Shown in pieces: positions 1 to 6,075 of a stretch of DNA of 6,075 nt. The DNA is from a virus, in IMG/VR virus record IMGVR_UViG_3300020029_000037, positions 1-6,075 of that record; one strand, 5' to 3'. Numbering within the stretch: the first letter of the stretch is position 1; every line of letters starts with the position of its first letter. A program made the translations under genes and the position numbers. The notes under the pieces were generated by a model. It had not been told where the DNA came from and did no database searches. It saw only the letters and a list, made by a program, of their open reading frames with translations.

Positions 1-121
1 GCCAGAATTGGAGAATGTCCAAATCCAGCCAGGTAGGGGGATCGAAATCAGGCATCTTACGAGAAGAGGCGGAAAAGCGCATTATTTGCTTTTGCTCCCA
101 CGTATATGTCTCTCTACGGGA
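1..121. repeat. Terminal direct repeat, copy 1 (identical to 5955-6075); overlap from a circular contig
   Basis: Base-by-base comparison shows all 121 positions are identical to 5955-6075. Confidence 0.97.
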
Positions 122-1039
122 TACGGAGGATTTGAGATTGAACCGTTCAACACACAAAGACACAATACGCTTAACCAGAGGAGACTTGCTAAAACGTGCA
201 TAAGCATCAGCAGCGGCAATCGAACGCGAGACTTCGTCTTCTTGTTTAAGATATCTAAGATAGTATCGAGGAATCGAGTAATTGTAATTGATACGCTTCT
301 CAAAATCAAAATAAGACCACGTCGAAACACGAGTAGAAGGACGAGGCATAAAACCAAGGAAATCACCAACGCCAGCAGATACGAATTTTCTCGTATAACG
401 GCGATGTTGGAGGAGGCAAGATAAAGGTGTAAGGTTTCCATTTACGGTAACGTATTTGTCCGAAATTTCTTCGGGATTAAACTGAATCTGTTTAGTAACA
501 TACTTAACGCAATAACGAGCACGCTTATGGGTAGCTTTCGCTAACCACACAAAACCAAGATCTCGAACAGTAGAACGAATCGTATTGTACAAGACATCGG
601 TGCCAAACAAAAAGCCATGAAAATGCAATCGAGGCTCATTTCCTGTTTCTGGGTGAGTACCAAACTCCTGAAAAAAAGCGTGTTTAAACGAATGGCCTAG
701 CTTATGGCGCAGACGTTCATTGAAGCGGCGGATGAACCAAGAAGGATCAAGCAAGGCTTTGTCGTAATACTTCGGAGCAATCGTTATTGTAATAAAAATA
801 GCCTGCCGACTATTAGCCTTACAATAAGCCAACTCACGCTCGAGGCGAACGAACCAATCATTGCGTTGACGGCGCAGACACTCTTCGCACCTTCCGCAGG
901 GGACCATAAGCCACTGGCGGGCGATATCCCAGGGGCGAAGGGCTAAGGCAGACTTAGCAACATCGGAACCGTCGCGACAAGGGTTCTTTTTGTCGAAATA
1001 ACGACGATTACGTATCCATATGGGCGATAAGCAAGGCAT
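1..1039 (-). CDS. VP4: Replication initiator protein (HUH rolling-circle endonuclease, Microviridae A/VP4 type), N-terminal 346 codons; continues across the circular junction
   Basis: Manual translation of the - strand from ATG (1037-1039) has no stop down to position 1. The protein begins MPCLSPIWIRNRRYFDKKNPCRDG. It has a Cys cluster PCGRCEEC (878-901), RCR motif 1 FITITI (779-796), the HUH motif LHFHGFLF (H139/H141, nt 617-625) and the two-tyrosine motif YCVKYVTK (Y176/Y180, nt 500-514). The ORF is missing from the supplied track because it has no stop inside the left edge. Confidence 0.92.
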   Translation of the reverse strand, partial: MPCLSPIWIRNRRYFDKKNPCRDGSDVAKSALALRPWDIARQWLMVPCGRCEECLRRQRNDWFVRLERELAYCKANSRQAIFITITIAPKYYDKALLDPSWFIRRFNERLRHKLGHSFKHAFFQEFGTHPETGNEPRLHFHGFLFGTDVLYNTIRSTVRDLGFVWLAKATHKRARYCVKYVTKQIQFNPEEISDKYVTVNGNLTPLSCLLQHRRYTRKFVSAGVGDFLGFMPRPSTRVSTWSYFDFEKRINYNYSIPRYYLRYLKQEDEVSRSIAAADAYARFSKSPLVKRIVSLCVERFNLKSSVSRRETYTWEQKQIMRFSASSRKMPDFDPPTWLDLDILQFW

Positions 1040-1239
1040 TAGAACAAGCTCTGAAGACAATCAAACTTAATACAAGGCTTCTCGAGGCGACAACGAATGA
1101 GGTAATCTTCAGCGGGGGCTTTGTCGGCAAACCAAGCGATAATAACTCGTTTTTTGCCGCGATATGCACCAACGGAGTAGCGACAGGGAACGCAATTAAC
1201 TATTGGAGAAAATCTAGGCCGGAAATCAAAATAATCCAT
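1039..1239 (-). CDS. Hypothetical 66-aa Cys-rich protein, translationally coupled to Rep
   Basis: ATG at 1237-1239. The stop TAA (1039-1041) overlaps the Rep ATG (1037-1039), giving TAATG. It is the first ORF after the main intergenic region. It has five Cys (C16-x2-C19 ... C50-x5-C56-x4-C61) and a net basic charge. I recognise no family. Confidence 0.55.
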   Translation of the reverse strand: MDYFDFRPRFSPIVNCVPCRYSVGAYRGKKRVIIAWFADKAPAEDYLIRCRLEKPCIKFDCLQSLF

Positions 1240-1258
1240 ATCTGAAAAATATTATTAT

Positions 1259-1287
1259 GCGCTTCGAAAGACGGTACTTTCGAGCGC
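1259..1287. other. Stable hairpin next to an AT-rich tract, just upstream of the first gene
   Basis: gcgc(t)tcgaaag pairs with ctttcgagcgc: 11 bp with one bulged T (1263/1264) and a 6-nt loop (1271-1276). On the - strand it is followed by GCATAATAATATTTTTCAGAT and then ATG. Confidence 0.6.
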
Positions 1288-1297
1288 GAAAACTATT

Positions 1298-1355
1298 CCG
1301 TTCGCCGCCCGACGGCCTTAACGGCCGAGACGCTTCGCGTCTTCGGGCTCCACGG
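1298..1355 (-). other. GC-rich three-way junction (Y-shaped fold) with a GCGAAGC mini-hairpin on the - (viral) strand; candidate ssDNA origin or priming element
   Basis: Outer stem 1307-1312 (gcccga) pairs with 1343-1348 (tcgggc). Arm A is 1313-1317 (cggcc) paired with 1323-1327 (ggccg), with a 5-nt loop. Arm B is 1328-1333 (agacgc) paired with 1337-1342 (gcgtct), with a 3-nt loop. No junction nucleotides are unpaired. An optional 4-bp extension pairs 1298-1301 with 1352-1355. On the - strand arm B reads AGACGCGAAGCGTCT. Confidence 0.6.
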
Positions 1356-1375
1356 CTCACTTCATGAGCGAATAT

Positions 1376-1391
1376 ACCGAATAAATTCGGT
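1376..1391. other. Small hairpin in the main intergenic region
   Basis: accgaa-taaa-ttcggt: a 6-bp stem with a 4-nt loop. Confidence 0.4.
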
Positions 1392-1404
1392 GAATTTGAG
1401 AGCT

Positions 1405-1438
1405 AAAAAAATCCCAGGGGAGAGCGACTCCCCTGGGA
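1405..1438 (-). terminator. Rho-independent terminator closing the - strand transcription unit
   Basis: The - strand reads TCCCAGGGGAG-tcgct-CTCCCCTGGGA followed by TTTTTTT (A-run 1405-1411 on the + strand). The stem is 11 bp (8 G:C) with a 5-nt loop and a U7 tail. It starts 46 nt after the stop of the last ORF (1485-1487). There is no T-run on the + strand side, so it works in one direction only. Confidence 0.8.
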
Positions 1439-1484
1439 GCCAACGGACTAAAGGACTCGGCCTCCAAGCGGACGAGTTACTATT

Positions 1485-1808
1485 TTAGTCCCTTTTCCCT
1501 TCTTCTTTCGCCGTGCTTTCATCACAATCAAGTTCAAGATCAAACATAAGGACAATCGTATTGTCGAAGAACTCAATGCAAAAATTGGAAAAAACTCCGC
1601 AAGTGCCAATGAGATCGGAAACTTCCGAGTGATCGATGTAGAGCGAATCACTAATGCTCGAACTCTTCAGATAAGACGCAATAGGAGACTTCGCGATAGC
1701 ATCAAAAGGAATAGAAACAAACTGAGCGTCTTTGACGCGACCTACTTGGACGAGGTCAATTTTTAAAGCCGGATTAACCCGACGAATAACAACATGAATC
1801 TGTGTCAT
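1485..1808 (-). CDS. Hypothetical protein, 107 aa from ATG 1806-1808 (the track's 120-aa version starts at a TTG at 1845-1847)
   Basis: This is the last ORF before the terminator. The ATG lies 11 nt after the stop of the upstream ORF (1820-1822). The track's start at 1847 is TTG and would overlap the upstream gene by 28 nt. The protein has an acidic C-tail, DLELDCDESTAKEEGKRD. I recognise no family. Confidence 0.55.
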   Translation of the reverse strand: MTQIHVVIRRVNPALKIDLVQVGRVKDAQFVSIPFDAIAKSPIASYLKSSSISDSLYIDHSEVSDLIGTCGVFSNFCIEFFDNTIVLMFDLELDCDESTAKEEGKRD

Positions 1809-1819
1809 AATAATGTGGC

Positions 1820-2140
1820 TTAAAGTTTTACCTGAAATTCGGCGCAAAAATGCTCCCAGGCGTTAGACTGATTTATCCAAAATTCGGCACCTTCGGGCGT
1901 CGAATAAAACAAGAATGCAGAAGTGACAAGATGACTAGGACCAAAGCTAGTACCGCGAAGAGAATGTCGAATATGAGAGCGCAGACGGTCGCGGAAGCTC
2001 TTGTAAGGCGAGAAGTCGCGCTCGTAATTCGCCTTGAAGGCAGCGAATACTCCTTGGCGAACAAGCCACTCGGTAAATGCATACTCTACAATGTCAACTA
2101 ACAGCTCGTCGTTTCTAACATTTTTGCAAGATCTTTTCAT
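1820..2140 (-). CDS. Hypothetical protein, 106 aa
   Basis: ATG at 2138-2140, TAA at 1820-1822. It is co-oriented with the other genes and follows an 86-nt gap after the pilot gene. It has a basic N-terminus and an aromatic-rich C-terminal block, AFLFYSTPEGAEFWINQSNAWEHF. I recognise no family. Confidence 0.6.
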   Translation of the reverse strand: MKRSCKNVRNDELLVDIVEYAFTEWLVRQGVFAAFKANYERDFSPYKSFRDRLRSHIRHSLRGTSFGPSHLVTSAFLFYSTPEGAEFWINQSNAWEHFCAEFQVKL

Positions 2141-2166
2141 AATAAAATGGTTATTGGTTTACAACG

Positions 2167-2197
2167 CAAACATAGAGCAAAGGAAATAAATAGCAAA
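2167..2197 (-). promoter_or_regulatory. Candidate Bacteroidota-type promoter (TTTG -33 / TAnnTTTG -7) upstream of the 106-aa ORF
   Basis: The - strand reads TTTG(2197-2194)-19 nt-TATGTTTG(2174-2167), then 26 nt to the ATG at 2140. This is weak evidence: TAnnTTTG alone also occurs inside coding sequence at 1062-1069, 1541-1548, 1942-1949, 3900-3907 and 4574-4581. Confidence 0.28.
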
Positions 2198-2226
2198 GTT
2201 CTAGAAGTCGAAAAAGTTGTTCAATT

Positions 2227-3483
2227 TCACCTTACATAGCGACGGCTGGACTTTGTGGTACCAGCGTACCTGCCGTCCTTGCCATAAATCTCTCTACTTT
2301 CATCATAATCAACGGGAGAAGGACGCTTGGTTACAGATGTGCCGGCGACGGCCATGGCGCCAACCAAAGCGGTTCTCGCAAGGCTATAACCAAAAGCATT
2401 CTTACTTGAGCGGTTTTGGAACCAGCGGCCTGAAAGGTCTTGCTCACCTTCAGAAGCGGCGAGGCCCATAAGTTTTTGATGAATCTGGCGACCTGTCATC
2501 TTCGTTGTCTTGCCGGTAGGCTTACCCTTTTCGTTAACCTCCGGAACGTCGACGAGTGCATCCCAATTGAGATTGAACCACTCGCGAAGATCAGCCAAAT
2601 TAACCTTACGTATCTCAGACTCAACGTCTAAGACGTCACCGGAAGCGGCAGATTCGTAGGCGGCGGCGAAATCTCGAGCAATCTGAGCAGCGTAAACAGC
2701 ATCGAAGTATTTGTCATTATACTTCTTGATCTGATTCGCTTCTTCAACGTGTTTCGAATACATAGCGACAAAATCTTGAAACTTGTACGTAGCCATAAGA
2801 TCAGCATACTCGGCATCAGCAGCATGAATATCAGCCAAAGAGCGATTAAGGCGAATTAATTCGGAAACATTGTCAATGTGATGCTCTAAGGATTTCTTTT
2901 CCAACTCATCCATTTCCTTTCGCCAATCTGCGCTATGAGTATTGCCTCTCATGAGTTCAGCCTCAGCATTATCGCGATTAGCAGCAGCCTCATTGCGATT
3001 AACCGAAGAATGAGCCATCATGTTTTGTGCAATAGCAGTGGGATCAGTGGCTGCAAAACCACCAGGAGCAATGGGCGAGCCACCTGAAGGGCCGGAGGCA
3101 GAAGGCATAGGGGCAGAGCCACCAGACATCGTGGCGTTGACGCCGACACCCGAAGAGCCTAAAACGGCGGCAGGCGTTACACCAGCCTTCAAGTAGCGGT
3201 CGAAAACCTTCGTAGGGTCATTATATGCATTCTCATAATCAAACTGTCTCTGCCAATTAGCATAGGAAAGTTCAGACTGCTTCTGCATCTGCTCGAGGGC
3301 ATACTTTTGCTGAAGCGCCATTTGTTTCTGCTGAAATCTCCACTGACGGCGGGCGCTCATGCCGCCAAAAAGTTGGCCTAAAAAGCCATTAATTAAACCA
3401 GTAGTGCCAGTAGAAGCAGCAGATTCACCAAGAGAACGACCGAAGGAGGCGGAGGCAGCAGCAGCAGCAACAGGGGTAGCCAT
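2227..3483 (-). CDS. VP2: DNA pilot / minor capsid protein (Microviridae H/VP2 type), 418 aa
   Basis: The N-terminus is Ala/Gly-rich (MATPVAAAAASASF..GLINGFLGQLFGG). A Q-rich block is followed by NAYNDPTKVFDRYLKAGVTPAAVLG (3157-3225), matching the YNxP...R...AG(L/V)(N/T)P signature I recall for gokushovirus/alpavirus VP2. The central region is long, helical and rich in charged residues, as in pilot proteins. Its size and its position downstream of the capsid gene also fit. Confidence 0.85.
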   Translation of the reverse strand: MATPVAAAAASASFGRSLGESAASTGTTGLINGFLGQLFGGMSARRQWRFQQKQMALQQKYALEQMQKQSELSYANWQRQFDYENAYNDPTKVFDRYLKAGVTPAAVLGSSGVGVNATMSGGSAPMPSASGPSGGSPIAPGGFAATDPTAIAQNMMAHSSVNRNEAAANRDNAEAELMRGNTHSADWRKEMDELEKKSLEHHIDNVSELIRLNRSLADIHAADAEYADLMATYKFQDFVAMYSKHVEEANQIKKYNDKYFDAVYAAQIARDFAAAYESAASGDVLDVESEIRKVNLADLREWFNLNWDALVDVPEVNEKGKPTGKTTKMTGRQIHQKLMGLAASEGEQDLSGRWFQNRSSKNAFGYSLARTALVGAMAVAGTSVTKRPSPVDYDESREIYGKDGRYAGTTKSSRRYVR

Positions 3484-3484
3484 A

Positions 3485-3676
3485 CTACACGTTAATTAAA
3501 TTGTTAGAACGAATAATGTAGTCAACACGTACTGTGTCGATATGAACGCCACTGCGCTGCATTCTAGCTTGAGCAGAACACGATGACAAGAAGAAGGCAG
3601 CTAAGGCGGCGACAATGGAGGAAACGAGTGTCCAAAAAGCTTTCGACTTGTAAAAAGGGGTTCTAGTATCTGACAT
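3485..3676 (-). CDS. Small putative lipoprotein, 63 aa (31-aa mature lipopeptide); candidate lysis or exclusion factor
   Basis: ATG at 3674-3676. The stop TAG (3485-3487) lies 1 nt from the VP2 ATG. The n-region is MSDTRTPFYKSK, the h-region is AFWTLVSSIVAALAAFF, and the lipobox is L30-S31-S32-C33 (3578-3589), which fits [LVI][ASTVI][GAS]C. Confidence 0.65.
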   Translation of the reverse strand: MSDTRTPFYKSKAFWTLVSSIVAALAAFFLSSCSAQARMQRSGVHIDTVRVDYIIRSNNLINV

Positions 3677-3788
3677 AATCTCGAAAAATTAAAGAACGAT
3701 AGAAAAATGCGCGGCCTCTCCTGCAGTCGTTACCAATAACCTTTAGCAATTCACGAACTCTTGCAAAAGGGGTCCGCGCACGTAACAT
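3663..3788 (-). CDS. Unlisted 41-aa Arg-rich ORF (candidate J/VP8-like DNA-binding peptide)
   Basis: My own translation: ATG at 3786-3788 to TAG at 3663-3665 gives MLRARTPFARVRELLKVIGNDCRRGRAFFYRSLIFRDYVRY, with 11 basic and 3 acidic residues. It fills the otherwise non-coding 134-nt gap and overlaps the next gene by 14 nt. It is below the track's size cutoff. Confidence 0.25.
   Translation of the reverse strand: MLRARTPFARVRELLKVIGNDCRRGRAFFYRSLIFRDYVRY
3703..3780 (-). other. Long-range GC stem closing a 59-nt interior, followed by T5 on the - strand; possible attenuator/partial terminator or ssDNA structural element
   Basis: tgcgcgg (3708-3714) pairs with ccgcgca (3774-3780), 7 bp with 6 G:C. 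After a 1-nt bulge the stem can extend through 3715-3719 pairing with 3768-3772. On the - strand the 3' arm is followed directly by TTTTT (3707-3703). Confidence 0.3.
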
Positions 3789-3810
3789 ATATCATCGAGT
3801 AAAGAAAGAG

Positions 3811-4107
3811 CTATTTTTCTTCAGAATCAGAGGACTTTGAAGTAGACTTAGCCTTATCTAACTGAGAATCAATAAGTTCTTGCCCAACTTCGAGGCCGTC
3901 AAACTTATCCATACGAGAGAAGGAGTTAGGGTCGAAATCAATTTCAGGGTTAAATTTCTCACCCTTCTCGAAATCAGAAGGTTCAGCCGTCACATCTGGA
4001 CGACCAGGAAGGACGTCGACGGAGCCAGAGCCGTCAAGAACAGAAAGAATGCGCTGACCACGAGAAACGTAAGTAGGGGTATCCTCAAGAAGCCAATCAA
4101 GTGCCAT
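3811..4107 (-). CDS. Acidic 98-aa protein; candidate scaffolding protein
   Basis: ATG at 4105-4107, 12 nt after the capsid stop; TAG at 3811-3813. It is strongly acidic (many D/E, C-tail KSSDSEEK). Small acidic proteins encoded beside the capsid gene are scaffolds in known microviruses. I see no diagnostic motif. Confidence 0.65.
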   Translation of the reverse strand: MALDWLLEDTPTYVSRGQRILSVLDGSGSVDVLPGRPDVTAEPSDFEKGEKFNPEIDFDPNSFSRMDKFDGLEVGQELIDSQLDKAKSTSKSSDSEEK

Positions 4108-4119
4108 AAAATCAAAATA

Positions 4120-5919
4120 TTAACGATTAGACAAACGGGTTGCAAAAGTTTTGTTAACCAAATTCTTCTTCTGAACCGCATAAGATAGATTTATGAAGAA
4201 ATTATCCTCTACGTTAGAAAAGAAAGGTGAATTAACCTGTGCCATATCCACGAAAAGCGCAGGATAATAATTAGCTTGAGCGGAGCCTAGGTACGAAAAG
4301 CCAAGCGATCTCTGCTGAACCCAATACGAATAGATAGGTTTAGGGGTAGATACAGAAGGAGCAGGATACGAAGACAAAGATCCTAATACTTCATCATAGG
4401 ACGAACGAAATTCATTGAAACAAGGCTCGTAGGCGACGGCAAGGCCAAGGTTCGAACCCGCGGCATTGCTAAAAAGCCGTGCTGCAGGAACATCCTGATA
4501 TCCAATGTCGTTATAAATGGGGTTGAAGTAATCAGAGCCTTGATAATTCAAATAATCGGGCGTTACGCCACTCCAAAAATAAATAGGACGAATGCTTAGC
4601 ATATCAATCATATAGCCAGGCTCGCGGAAGTAATAAGACTGTCGGCGACCGAGGCGATCGTTGAAGGCGATAGCACCACCTTGCTGACCAAGGGGACCTG
4701 CGGACGAATCTCCGCCGAAATTATTGAATCCGGCTTGATTCATAACAACCTGAACATTAACAGTCTGCGAAGCGCTAAACAGCAATTTAGGTCGATCGAC
4801 GTGTTCGATCTTTGAAGCAAAAAAAGTTTCCAGCCAGTCACTATAGCGAGAACCTCCAGCGCCAAGCAAATCCTTGTATTCCTGAAGTCGCGAAGCGATA
4901 GCCAGCTGTGGAATAGTGCTTACACCCGACATAGAAACAGCGGATGAGGTTCCCACGGGGATGAGGCGACTGAATCGATCGGGGTTCGAAGGCACAACAG
5001 CCATAGGATGCGCAAACAGAAAAGCCGAAATACCAGTAAGGGAGGAGCTACCTACGGCGGTGGAAAACTGACCAGTAGGGCCATCTCCAGAAATAACATT
5101 AGCACCACTGGGACGTGTGGTAGAAACAGGGTAGCCGTCTTGATCGCCGCCAGCTGGAAGTTGAGAATTAATTATCTGAAAAAACAGGTTACCTCGATTA
5201 AAGGTGTTATTTGTGCTCGAAACAGCTGACGGGTAAAACTGACTCTCAAAATAAGCATCAAGAAATTCTAGGTTAGCGAATTCCTGCTTGAAAAAAGAAG
5301 CGCTAGTACTAAAAGAGTACGAGTCGGGGAGAATCGACCAGGAAGCAGGCCATGCGATGGAATACAAGGACCACTGCGAGTAGCTATAATAATTTCGAAC
5401 GATGTCCCAATAAGCTAAATAAGTATCAGCATTTGCCCACTGATTAACCGCAGCGCCGGAAGGAAGACTAGCGGTGTAGGGAGGCTGATTAGAAAGTTGC
5501 AGCGACGTCTTGTTGGAAACGCGAAGCCAAGACATAAGCGAATTAGGAAAGGCGCGGGTAGTACCAATAGCGGAATTGGGGGTAGGAGTGCCCGAGGTGC
5601 CAACAAGGGCGGTAATCCAATTCAAACTCAACTCGTTCATATCGAACTTACTGCTATTCGTACGAAGCTCAGGGTGATACAGCTGAAGAGGCACCCAAAA
5701 ACGGTGAAGTCGAATAACATAGGGATTGAACGTTGGGACAGCAAGAGGATTGCTGCGAACGTCAACGCCTTGCTCAATAGATACGCGATCTCGGGCATTA
5801 ATAAAATCAATTCGCACTGGATATAAAATACCCGGTGTACACGTAAAGGCCTTACTCTCGGGGACATCATAGCGAGAGTAACCATTTACAGCGTGAGAAA
5901 TAAAAGGTTGTTTTCCCAT
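4120..5919 (-). CDS. VP1: Major capsid protein (Microviridae F/VP1 type), 599 aa
   Basis: This is the largest ORF, with ATG at 5917-5919. The N-terminal block PGILYPVRIDFINARDRVSIEQ...IRLHRFWVPLQLY parallels the G-L-P...PGD...FFFVP-RL block of VP1 proteins. The block IASRLQEYKDLLGAGGSRYSDWLETFF..VDRPKLL (aa 341-380) parallels the conserved LQ-W-E--ARGGTRY-E-I---FGV--D-RLQRPE block, recalled from memory. Confidence 0.95.
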   Translation of the reverse strand: MGKQPFISHAVNGYSRYDVPESKAFTCTPGILYPVRIDFINARDRVSIEQGVDVRSNPLAVPTFNPYVIRLHRFWVPLQLYHPELRTNSSKFDMNELSLNWITALVGTSGTPTPNSAIGTTRAFPNSLMSWLRVSNKTSLQLSNQPPYTASLPSGAAVNQWANADTYLAYWDIVRNYYSYSQWSLYSIAWPASWSILPDSYSFSTSASFFKQEFANLEFLDAYFESQFYPSAVSSTNNTFNRGNLFFQIINSQLPAGGDQDGYPVSTTRPSGANVISGDGPTGQFSTAVGSSSLTGISAFLFAHPMAVVPSNPDRFSRLIPVGTSSAVSMSGVSTIPQLAIASRLQEYKDLLGAGGSRYSDWLETFFASKIEHVDRPKLLFSASQTVNVQVVMNQAGFNNFGGDSSAGPLGQQGGAIAFNDRLGRRQSYYFREPGYMIDMLSIRPIYFWSGVTPDYLNYQGSDYFNPIYNDIGYQDVPAARLFSNAAGSNLGLAVAYEPCFNEFRSSYDEVLGSLSSYPAPSVSTPKPIYSYWVQQRSLGFSYLGSAQANYYPALFVDMAQVNSPFFSNVEDNFFINLSYAVQKKNLVNKTFATRLSNR

Positions 5920-5922
5920 AAA

Positions 5923-6075
5923 TTAAATAATTAGTTGAAGTTTGTAATGATCTCGCCAGAATTGGAGAATGTCCAAATCCAGCCAGGTAGGGGGATCGAA
6001 ATCAGGCATCTTACGAGAAGAGGCGGAAAAGCGCATTATTTGCTTTTGCTCCCACGTATATGTCTCTCTACGGGA
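5923..6075 (-). CDS. VP4: C-terminal end of the same Rep gene, including the stop codon; 5955-6075 duplicates 1-121
   Basis: The same frame continues 5954->5926 (RDHYKLQLII) to TAA at 5923-5925, 3 nt before the capsid ATG. Total length is 356 aa after circularisation. Confidence 0.88.
   Translation of the reverse strand, partial: SRRETYTWEQKQIMRFSASSRKMPDFDPPTWLDLDILQFWRDHYKLQLII
5955..6075. repeat. Terminal direct repeat, copy 2 (identical to 1-121)
   Basis: Same comparison. Position 5955 corresponds to position 1 and 6075 to 121. Confidence 0.97.

Follow-up and report, generated by a model that had tools for sequence, protein, structure and literature searches.

We have analyzed a viral DNA of 6,075 nucleotides (nt), the IMG/VR record IMGVR_UViG_3300020029_000037 from position 1 to 6,075 (from here on the window), with a focus on a small gene that would code for a lipoprotein. 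The window is a complete circular microvirus genome with a unit of 5954 nt and an exact terminal direct repeat of 121 nt (1-121 identical to 5955-6075). All of its genes lie on the minus strand, in the order Rep, major capsid protein, a protein of 98 amino acids (aa), the lipoprotein gene, the pilot gene and several small open reading frames (ORFs), with the Rep gene spanning the circular junction. The putative prolipoprotein gene is found at 3485..3676 (minus strand), with its ATG at 3676-3674, 63 codons and a TAG stop at 3487-3485, and a spacer of only 1 nt separates this stop from the ATG of the pilot gene at 3483. The coordinates, the peptide, the ATG start and the 1-nt gap are all as given in the preliminary description of this stretch, which had singled out the ORF as a candidate lysis or superinfection exclusion factor. 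It had also called the gene standalone and free of overprinting, and rightly so: the only minus-strand ORF that overlaps it, one of 41 aa (3788->3663), is noncoding, and the lipoprotein gene overlaps no coding gene.

The N-terminal (n-) region of the predicted prolipoprotein (codons 1-12, MSDTRTPFYKSK, 3641..3676, minus strand) has a net charge of +2 (D3, R5, K10, K12). It is followed by a hydrophobic (h-) region of 17 residues, A13-F29 (AFWTLVSSIVAALAAFF, 3590..3640, minus strand), which is the best conserved part of the family and has a Kyte-Doolittle maximum over 19 residues of 1.98, the highest among the products of the window. Next comes the lipobox L30-S31-S32-C33 (3578..3589, minus strand), in which Cys33 (TGT, 3580-3578) is the predicted lipidation site and would be the first residue after cleavage. 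The predicted mature lipopeptide, C33-V63 (codons 33-63, CSAQARMQRSGVHIDTVRVDYIIRSNNLINV, 3488..3580, minus strand), has 31 aa, a net charge of +2 and an alternating pattern typical of beta strands. To judge the lipobox we used the PROSITE entry PS51257, {DERK}(6)-[LIVMFWSTAG](2)-[LIVMFYSTAGCQ]-[AGS]-C, with its additional rules that the Cys is at 15-35 and that a K or R is present within the first 7 residues. The window protein satisfies the pattern (AALAAF-FL-S-S-C33) and both rules (R5 for the second). This is the type II signal of the preliminary description, with its charged n-region, core of 17 residues and LSSC lipobox, and the 31 residues that it gave for the mature part are also those counted from the sequence. 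Actually, an ATG ORF of at least 40 aa that conforms to PS51257 arises in 37 of 300 mononucleotide shuffles of the genome (at least one in each of them), so that the pattern alone is weak evidence for a lipoprotein gene and it is the conservation that carries the weight.

In this respect the ORF proves to be a true gene, one that is strongly constrained by purifying selection in a large clade of microviruses from the gut. Among 5.8 billion proteins, a word-indexed search found 408 clusters at 83-95% identity, located on contigs of about 6 kb. The ORF has exactly 63 codons in all 79 distinct IMG/VR relatives, over which the entropy at codon positions 1, 2 and 3 was 0.26, 0.14 and 1.11. The divergence in the same relatives was 0.63 at synonymous sites (pS), which are near saturation, and 0.083 at nonsynonymous ones (pN), with a dN/dS of about 0.06; by segments, this ratio was 0.047 for the hydrophobic region plus the lipobox and 0.061 for residues 34-60 of the mature part. 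The mean identity of the protein within the clade (87.5%) equals that of Rep and is higher than those of the capsid (71%) and pilot (63%) proteins. As a sample independent of the gene, we took the 80 IMG/VR loci most similar in the capsid protein. The gene was present in 78 of them, the exceptions being a stored fragment and a contig broken at the gene (L160); a loss of the gene in L160 was considered and rejected, as the contig merely breaks there. It was also found in 19 of the 20 nearest GenBank microviruses, where it is labelled 'hypothetical protein' or has no annotation. The preliminary description had considered that absence or disruption of the ORF in close relatives would speak against it, and in no informative relative is it disrupted.

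Directly upstream of the gene there is an ultraconserved block of 119 nt (3690..3808, minus strand) that contains the ORF 3788->3663 and spans from just past the 98-aa gene to 13 nt before the lipoprotein ATG. Nearly every nucleotide of this block is 90-100% conserved, without 3-base periodicity, a degree of conservation that most coding sequence does not reach. All 80 clade loci have the block, and genomes in which the mature peptide differs also have it directly upstream of the gene, at 75-96% identity. The frame of the upstream ORF relative to the gene is not constant: there is a stop 1-4 codons upstream in 32 genomes, both are in frame in about 30 and they are shifted in the others. Given the lack of periodicity and the variable frame relation, the 119-nt element is noncoding and the 63-codon ATG ORF is the gene. 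On the same grounds we have rejected as real genes the upstream ORF of 41 aa and its 100-aa fusion. Many of the database versions of the protein have 100 aa since the upstream ORF happens to be in frame in those genomes; these proteins and the 41-aa ORF are read-throughs of the noncoding block. The DNA fold of the block had a z of -1.96, with a GCGCGG...CCGCGC stem followed by T5, and within it there is a stretch, ACTCGATGATATATG, which we take to recall the phiX174 origin. We consider the block a candidate origin or promoter.

The gene is also hidden in some public records. In MG945498.1 (our locus L084) the feature 'similar to VP2' (2987-4612) starts about 200 nt early and covers the lipoprotein gene, and the pilot feature does the same in MG945683, MG945680 and MG945716. 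The fusion to the pilot protein annotated in MG945498 was rejected, as the frame used by the feature in this region differs from the one of the lipoprotein. The results correct current records, since in many database entries there is a spurious 100-aa protein, or the gene was missed or is buried under the pilot-protein feature.

To examine the signal beyond the clade, we carried out an exhaustive HMMER search over 1.84 billion cluster representatives, which gave 64 clusters. From this family we used an alignment of 44 representatives (A2) and 131 distinct members taken from the fetched loci. The lipoprotein reading of the family is well supported by these sequences. Cys33 is the single invariant column in A2. 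The position before it (-1) is S or G in the 131 members, and S, G or A in A2, with A in a few representatives; position -2 is S, A, T, V or G, occasionally E, and the Cys is located at position 30-35 of the 131 members, 125 of which follow the PS51257 rule (the exceptions have mostly Glu at -2). Besides, there are members with an unrelated hydrophobic leader and the same lipobox and mature peptide (P0146, P0154, P0156 and Dulem viruses 210 and 222). When the n-flank is compared with the 15 residues that follow the Cys, the n-flank had the higher charge in 123 of the 131 members, the same charge in 8 and a lower one in none, a bias that favours insertion with the N-terminus inside and the C-terminus outside (N-in/C-out). 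The mature peptides have 31-35 aa, with a net charge of +2 or +3 in nearly all members.

Signal backbones of 16-34 residues work for lipoproteins of Bacteroides thetaiotaomicron (PMC11554821), and the one of the window protein, with 32 residues, is inside this range. Export to the surface or to vesicles in that species depends on a motif at +2 to +6, which is offset by positive charges (PMC11554821). None of the 131 family members has an acidic residue at +2 to +6, from which we infer a location facing the periplasm.

Every family context that we examined was a microvirus genome or a microvirus prophage. Three arrangements of the gene were seen: immediately before the pilot gene, like in the window; about 450-650 nt upstream of Rep, or as the first gene of a prophage; and as a long form of 190-202 aa that abuts Rep. 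Expression together with the late genes, as proposed in the preliminary description, fits the first of these arrangements but not the rest, since elsewhere the gene is upstream of Rep, at the prophage edge or fused to a basic tail. The mature peptides fall into types, AQARVQRSGVHIDTVRVDYIIRSNN in the window, ...HYVVQSASSVKSGDTTRTTITYEQIGNFKRP, ...HRVQQTATSFSGKDSVVMTIIYDSRGNIKKL and others. One family member belongs to a prophage of Alistipes montrealensis kh20 (L083, NZ_JAGYXY010000001 123486-139680). The prophages with family members are integrated in chromosomes of Bacteroidales type. L082 and L153 are located between a gene for an Rce1-like protease and one for an S41 peptidase, and the lipoprotein gene is the first gene of the prophage. 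We found no Shine-Dalgarno sequence at any gene of the window. Both the prophages and the missing Shine-Dalgarno sequences agree with a host among the Bacteroidota, which for the window clade itself is a putative one.

The long form deserves a description of its own. The lipoprotein ORF of about half of the distant clusters continues for about 110 codons past the point where the shorter form ends (about codon 63). The extension overprints, in the +2 frame, a conserved gene of 120-135 aa with the motifs FDPxILPVYTC, SELFG and LWGKMF, and ends in a conserved basic tail, ...RRGGRRGKGRPKGTKxxPLGGSHL, which is a homologue of the product of a separate 24-aa ORF of the window. Long forms are found at L081 (1512-2114) and L083 (8001-8609), and also at L094, L103, L115 and L130. 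The probability that the long-form frame is open by chance was 0.07-0.32 per genome, and the fusion product of about 200 aa is predicted from the open frame.

Within the family, the signal helix is more conserved than the peptide that it would deliver. The h-region (consensus SKKFWTLVAAIVAALxAFF) had a mean pairwise identity of 0.69, compared with 0.38 in the n-region and 0.33 in the mature part. Comparing the h-region codons between mature types, pS was 0.66-0.79 and pN 0.10-0.20; since the synonymous sites have diverged to this extent while the nonsynonymous ones have not, the conservation of the helix reflects selection at the protein level. We also considered that the segment could be conserved as DNA, being part of the neighbouring cis element, and rejected it because the synonymous sites in these codons are saturated. 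Signal peptides are ordinarily the fastest-diverging part of a protein. The pattern suggests that the helix has a sequence-specific role, even if its conservation may be partly one of ascertainment, the members having been found partly via this segment. In any case, a plain targeting signal plus an active lipopeptide does not predict that the signal helix should be the best conserved part.

Searches of Pfam (E <= 1), PHROGs, NCBIfam and PADLOC and a profile search of the sequences in PDB gave nothing above chance for the lipoprotein. Its only PHROG match was PHROG 14165, of unknown function, at E = 0.092, which is chance level. One entry in nr, DAU60727.1, had already been named 'lipoprotein' by automated annotation, and no paper among those searched describes a microvirus lipoprotein. 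The protein appears thus as a small phage lipoprotein of no known family, present in single-stranded DNA microviruses of Bacteroidales-type hosts. It does not belong to the BRP, Rz1, Llp/Cor or E families, and resembles them in design only.

In size and design the closest analogue would be the colicin lysis (BRP) lipoproteins (PF02402, including ColE1 Kil and the BRP of pCloDF13), a resemblance that does not extend to family membership. These are also very small prolipoproteins with a mature part of about 30 aa (27-35 aa in the colicin lysis proteins), and a single small gene compromises the envelope without an enzyme, as we propose for the window protein. Colicin lysis proteins cause a quasi-lysis by way of outer-membrane phospholipase A. 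The cleaved signal peptide of BRP is stable and contributes to the effect, and an active signal peptide of this kind would fit the conserved helix found here. The differences are also clear: the window protein has no Pfam match at E <= 1, a longer signal peptide (32 aa) and a cationic mature part, and its gene is carried by a phage of a Bacteroidales-type host and not by the colicin operon of a plasmid in an enterobacterium. The preliminary description had concluded that a lipopeptide of 31 aa fits no known class. As far as spanin, Llp, Cor and E families are concerned no match was found, but the statement was too strong, since it overlooked this analogue.

The other known systems are more distant. 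Protein E of phiX174, an inhibitor of MraY, is also a microvirus protein of less than 100 aa, both have a conserved N-terminal hydrophobic helix and a replaceable C-terminal part, and the long-form relatives of the window gene are partly overprinted. However, Pfam gives no similarity between them, the window gene is not overprinted, whereas that of E is embedded out of frame in another gene, and its synonymous sites can vary freely, and its family has an invariant lipobox Cys, an N-in charge bias and no Pro in the helix. O-spanins (Rz1) share with the window protein that they are small phage lipoproteins, with a role in the last step of lysis (here proposed). In contrast to them, its mature part has no proline-rich stretch or extra Cys, Pfam and PHROG give no spanin match, and the window genome has no gene for a partner inner-membrane spanin (in o-spanins embedded, overlapping or adjacent) or any other membrane protein, nor a holin or endolysin whose action it could complete. 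Like the window protein as proposed here, T5 Llp and Cor (phi80/N15) are small phage lipoproteins that act at the envelope, in their case by blocking the phage's own outer-membrane receptor, and the family studied has members in temperate relatives; but there is no match in Pfam, PHROGs or PADLOC, the mature part of the window protein is half the size, and its gene is universal and core-like rather than accessory.

Our leading guess, to which we give a probability of about 0.4, is that the protein is an envelope effector for lysis of the host or release of the phage. It is the only window product with a hydrophobic segment of transmembrane grade, and with Pfam, PHROG or NCBIfam none of the products had an enzyme match, nor was any murein hydrolase or holin found in the window genome. 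A lysis role is the likeliest one because this is the sole membrane-directed product of a genome without a recognisable cell-wall hydrolase. The positively charged n-region would stay in the cytoplasm while the 17-residue helix inserts N-in/C-out; Cys33 would then be acylated by Lgt, and LspA would cut before it. The product would be a cationic lipopeptide of 31 aa, prone to form a beta hairpin, on the periplasmic side, and lacking an acidic lipoprotein export signal it would not be expected to flip to the cell surface. In this reading a single gene would be enough for lysis, with a product designed like the colicin lysis lipoproteins, and the conserved signal helix probably adds to the effect in the way of the stable signal peptide of BRP.

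The distribution of another lysis candidate is suggestive in this context. PhiX174 is the sole microvirus with a known lysis mechanism, and in other gut microviruses there is an M15 peptidase that is regarded as a likely endolysin (PMC3394797). This peptidase is present in an isolate, the Bacteroides fragilis phage phiHBP1. It was found in 0 of 141 family-bearing genomes, and the lipoprotein family in 0 of 6 peptidase-bearing microviruses, phiHBP1 included (the phiHBP1 peptidase, used as single query in IMG/VR, gave only 3 loci). The two are thus complementary, but this is confounded by phylogeny, as the peptidase genomes are another clade with a different Rep size and gene order. As a separate observation, two peptidase-bearing genomes that lack the family contain tiny annotated ORFs of 36-40 aa (L147, 3245-3367; L146, 5615-5725). 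In L147 the product combines a basic tail with one segment of strong hydrophobicity, in L146 the hydrophobic segment is weaker, and both products may be holin-like partners of the M15 peptidase.

Several other data weigh against the lysis role, which is reached by elimination and by analogy of design. Rapid evolution is typical of the single-gene lysis proteins that are known, and their genes are often overprinted, whereas the lipoprotein gene belongs to the best conserved ones of the genome. The relatives are temperate, and a lysis gene would need to be silenced in the prophage; besides, the first position at the prophage edge is typical of lysogenic-conversion genes. In the long forms the module is followed by a very basic tail, a feature not easily reconciled with export. 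In the second mature-peptide type the lipobox has a Glu at -2 (FFLESC), outside the PROSITE pattern and unusual for a lipobox (L085, 3507-3704; L086, 2428-2625; L087, 3402-3599; L142, 735-932). Finally, AlphaFold2 run on alignment A1 predicted just one continuous helix, an uninformative model of moderate confidence (mean pLDDT 73.6, pTM 0.36).

Some of these points bring in superinfection exclusion or receptor masking, where the lipopeptide in the envelope would block the receptor or the DNA-entry route of the same or related microviruses; in a variant, it might protect the released progeny from debris, like T5 Llp and Cor. We find this doubtful, if still worth serious attention. Small phage lipoproteins are known in this role, there are temperate relatives with the gene first at the prophage edge, and in the window clade it adjoins the pilot (entry) gene, with which it is probably co-translated. 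The discrete mature types, different between clades and tight within them, would also be expected if the partner co-varies with a host surface protein. Such genes, however, are usually accessory and patchy, whereas this one is universal and has Rep-like conservation in a genome of 6 kb, and the strongest constraint is on the signal helix and not on the part that would bind a receptor. No similarity to the Llp or Cor families appeared in the Pfam and PHROG scans, and exclusion would leave the clade without a lysis candidate. The constraint on the helix could be taken instead as the mark of an uncleaved transmembrane inhibitor of the phiX174 E type, with the helix binding a membrane enzyme of envelope synthesis and the Cys motif being used otherwise. 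In line with this, the helix is the most conserved part (0.69 against 0.33) and is selected at the protein level, small residues recur in it at 19/20, 23/24 and 26/27, like in helix-packing motifs, the C-terminal part is replaceable between members, and the long forms pass through an overprinted region that recalls the organisation of gene E. We consider it quite unlikely all the same: the sole invariant residue is a Cys that always follows a small one (S or G, A in a few), as in a lipobox, the members with an unrelated hydrophobic segment retain the lipobox and the mature peptide, the charge bias is N-in/C-out, the opposite of E, and Pfam gives no match to the E family.

An accessory role in morphogenesis or entry, either as a membrane anchor for assembly or DNA packaging or as a helper of the pilot protein in DNA delivery, convinces us just as little. 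Packaging takes place in the cytoplasm, across the membrane from where an exported lipopeptide would be, and a need for a factor of this kind is not known in any microvirus. In the window clade only 1 nt separates the gene from the pilot gene, which would agree with such a role, but in many genomes the two are not adjacent. In the same way, about half of the distant clusters end the ORF in a tail like those of the small basic DNA-binding proteins of microviruses, but in the window clade this tail is a separate gene of 24 aa, so that the modules work independently. Conservation at the level of a core gene is also in its favour. A more speculative proposal, which we regard as improbable, is that the signal peptide itself is the weapon: a sequence-specific helix with an Ala/Ser zipper that would jam an essential envelope machine of Bacteroidales, either inserted or after release by LspA. 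Selection on the protein has kept this helix in microvirus clades in which the mature peptides are no longer recognisably related. Candidate targets would be the pathway of lipoprotein processing and sorting, or an enzyme or flippase of lipid II, and the exchangeable cationic lipopeptide would be a second, host-specific module. If true, it would represent single-gene lysis proteins of a new class, acting by hijack of the lipoprotein pathway. If the lipoprotein is a lysis factor in the way that we favour, it would be the first lipoprotein-type single-gene lysis system of a phage and would hint at a vulnerable target in the Bacteroidales envelope; as an exclusion factor, it would be the first known in microviruses. 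Few phages of the mammalian gut are as abundant as microviruses, and the gene provides a concrete, universal and very small lysis candidate for a whole large clade of them, with hundreds of natural variants that can be used to read structure and function.

Regarding the rest of the window, the capsid, pilot and Rep genes were identified by Pfam and PHROG matches. The major capsid protein gene is at 5919->4120 (minus strand), and the gene of the DNA pilot protein (VP2/H-like) at 2227..3483 (minus strand), with a match to the pilot protein PHROG 8689 at E = 1.8e-9. The 98-aa gene (3811..4107, minus strand), between the capsid gene and the noncoding block, codes for an acidic protein with a mean identity of 85.9% over 78 loci. 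Pfam and PHROG scans gave no family match for this product, which would probably be of the scaffolding type. As for the genome as a whole, its nearest records in GenBank are unclassified Microviridae from faeces of pig, deer, civet, lemur and rodent, with 72-83% nucleotide identity over parts of the genome.

We have also searched for regulatory signals. A scan for sigma-70 promoters and terminators around the lipoprotein gene gave only what shuffled sequences give, and an Rfam scan of the window only a chance-level match to U6atac. The Bacteroidetes-type promoter TTTG-N(17-23)-TAnnTTTG had a sole match in the genome, at 2167-2197 (minus strand), upstream of an ORF of 106 aa, for a chance expectation of 0.25 (at least one match was present in 44 of 200 shuffles). 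Finally, the 24-codon ATG ORF whose product is homologous to the basic tail of the long forms, MKARRKKKGKGTKIVTRPLGGRVL, is located at 1448-1522 (minus strand). It has no annotation in the GenBank relatives that we inspected. The in-frame stretch upstream of it varies among the clade loci from 26 to 118 codons, and its own ATG is kept in 74 of 75 of them. In size and composition its product is like the J-like small basic DNA-binding protein of microviruses.

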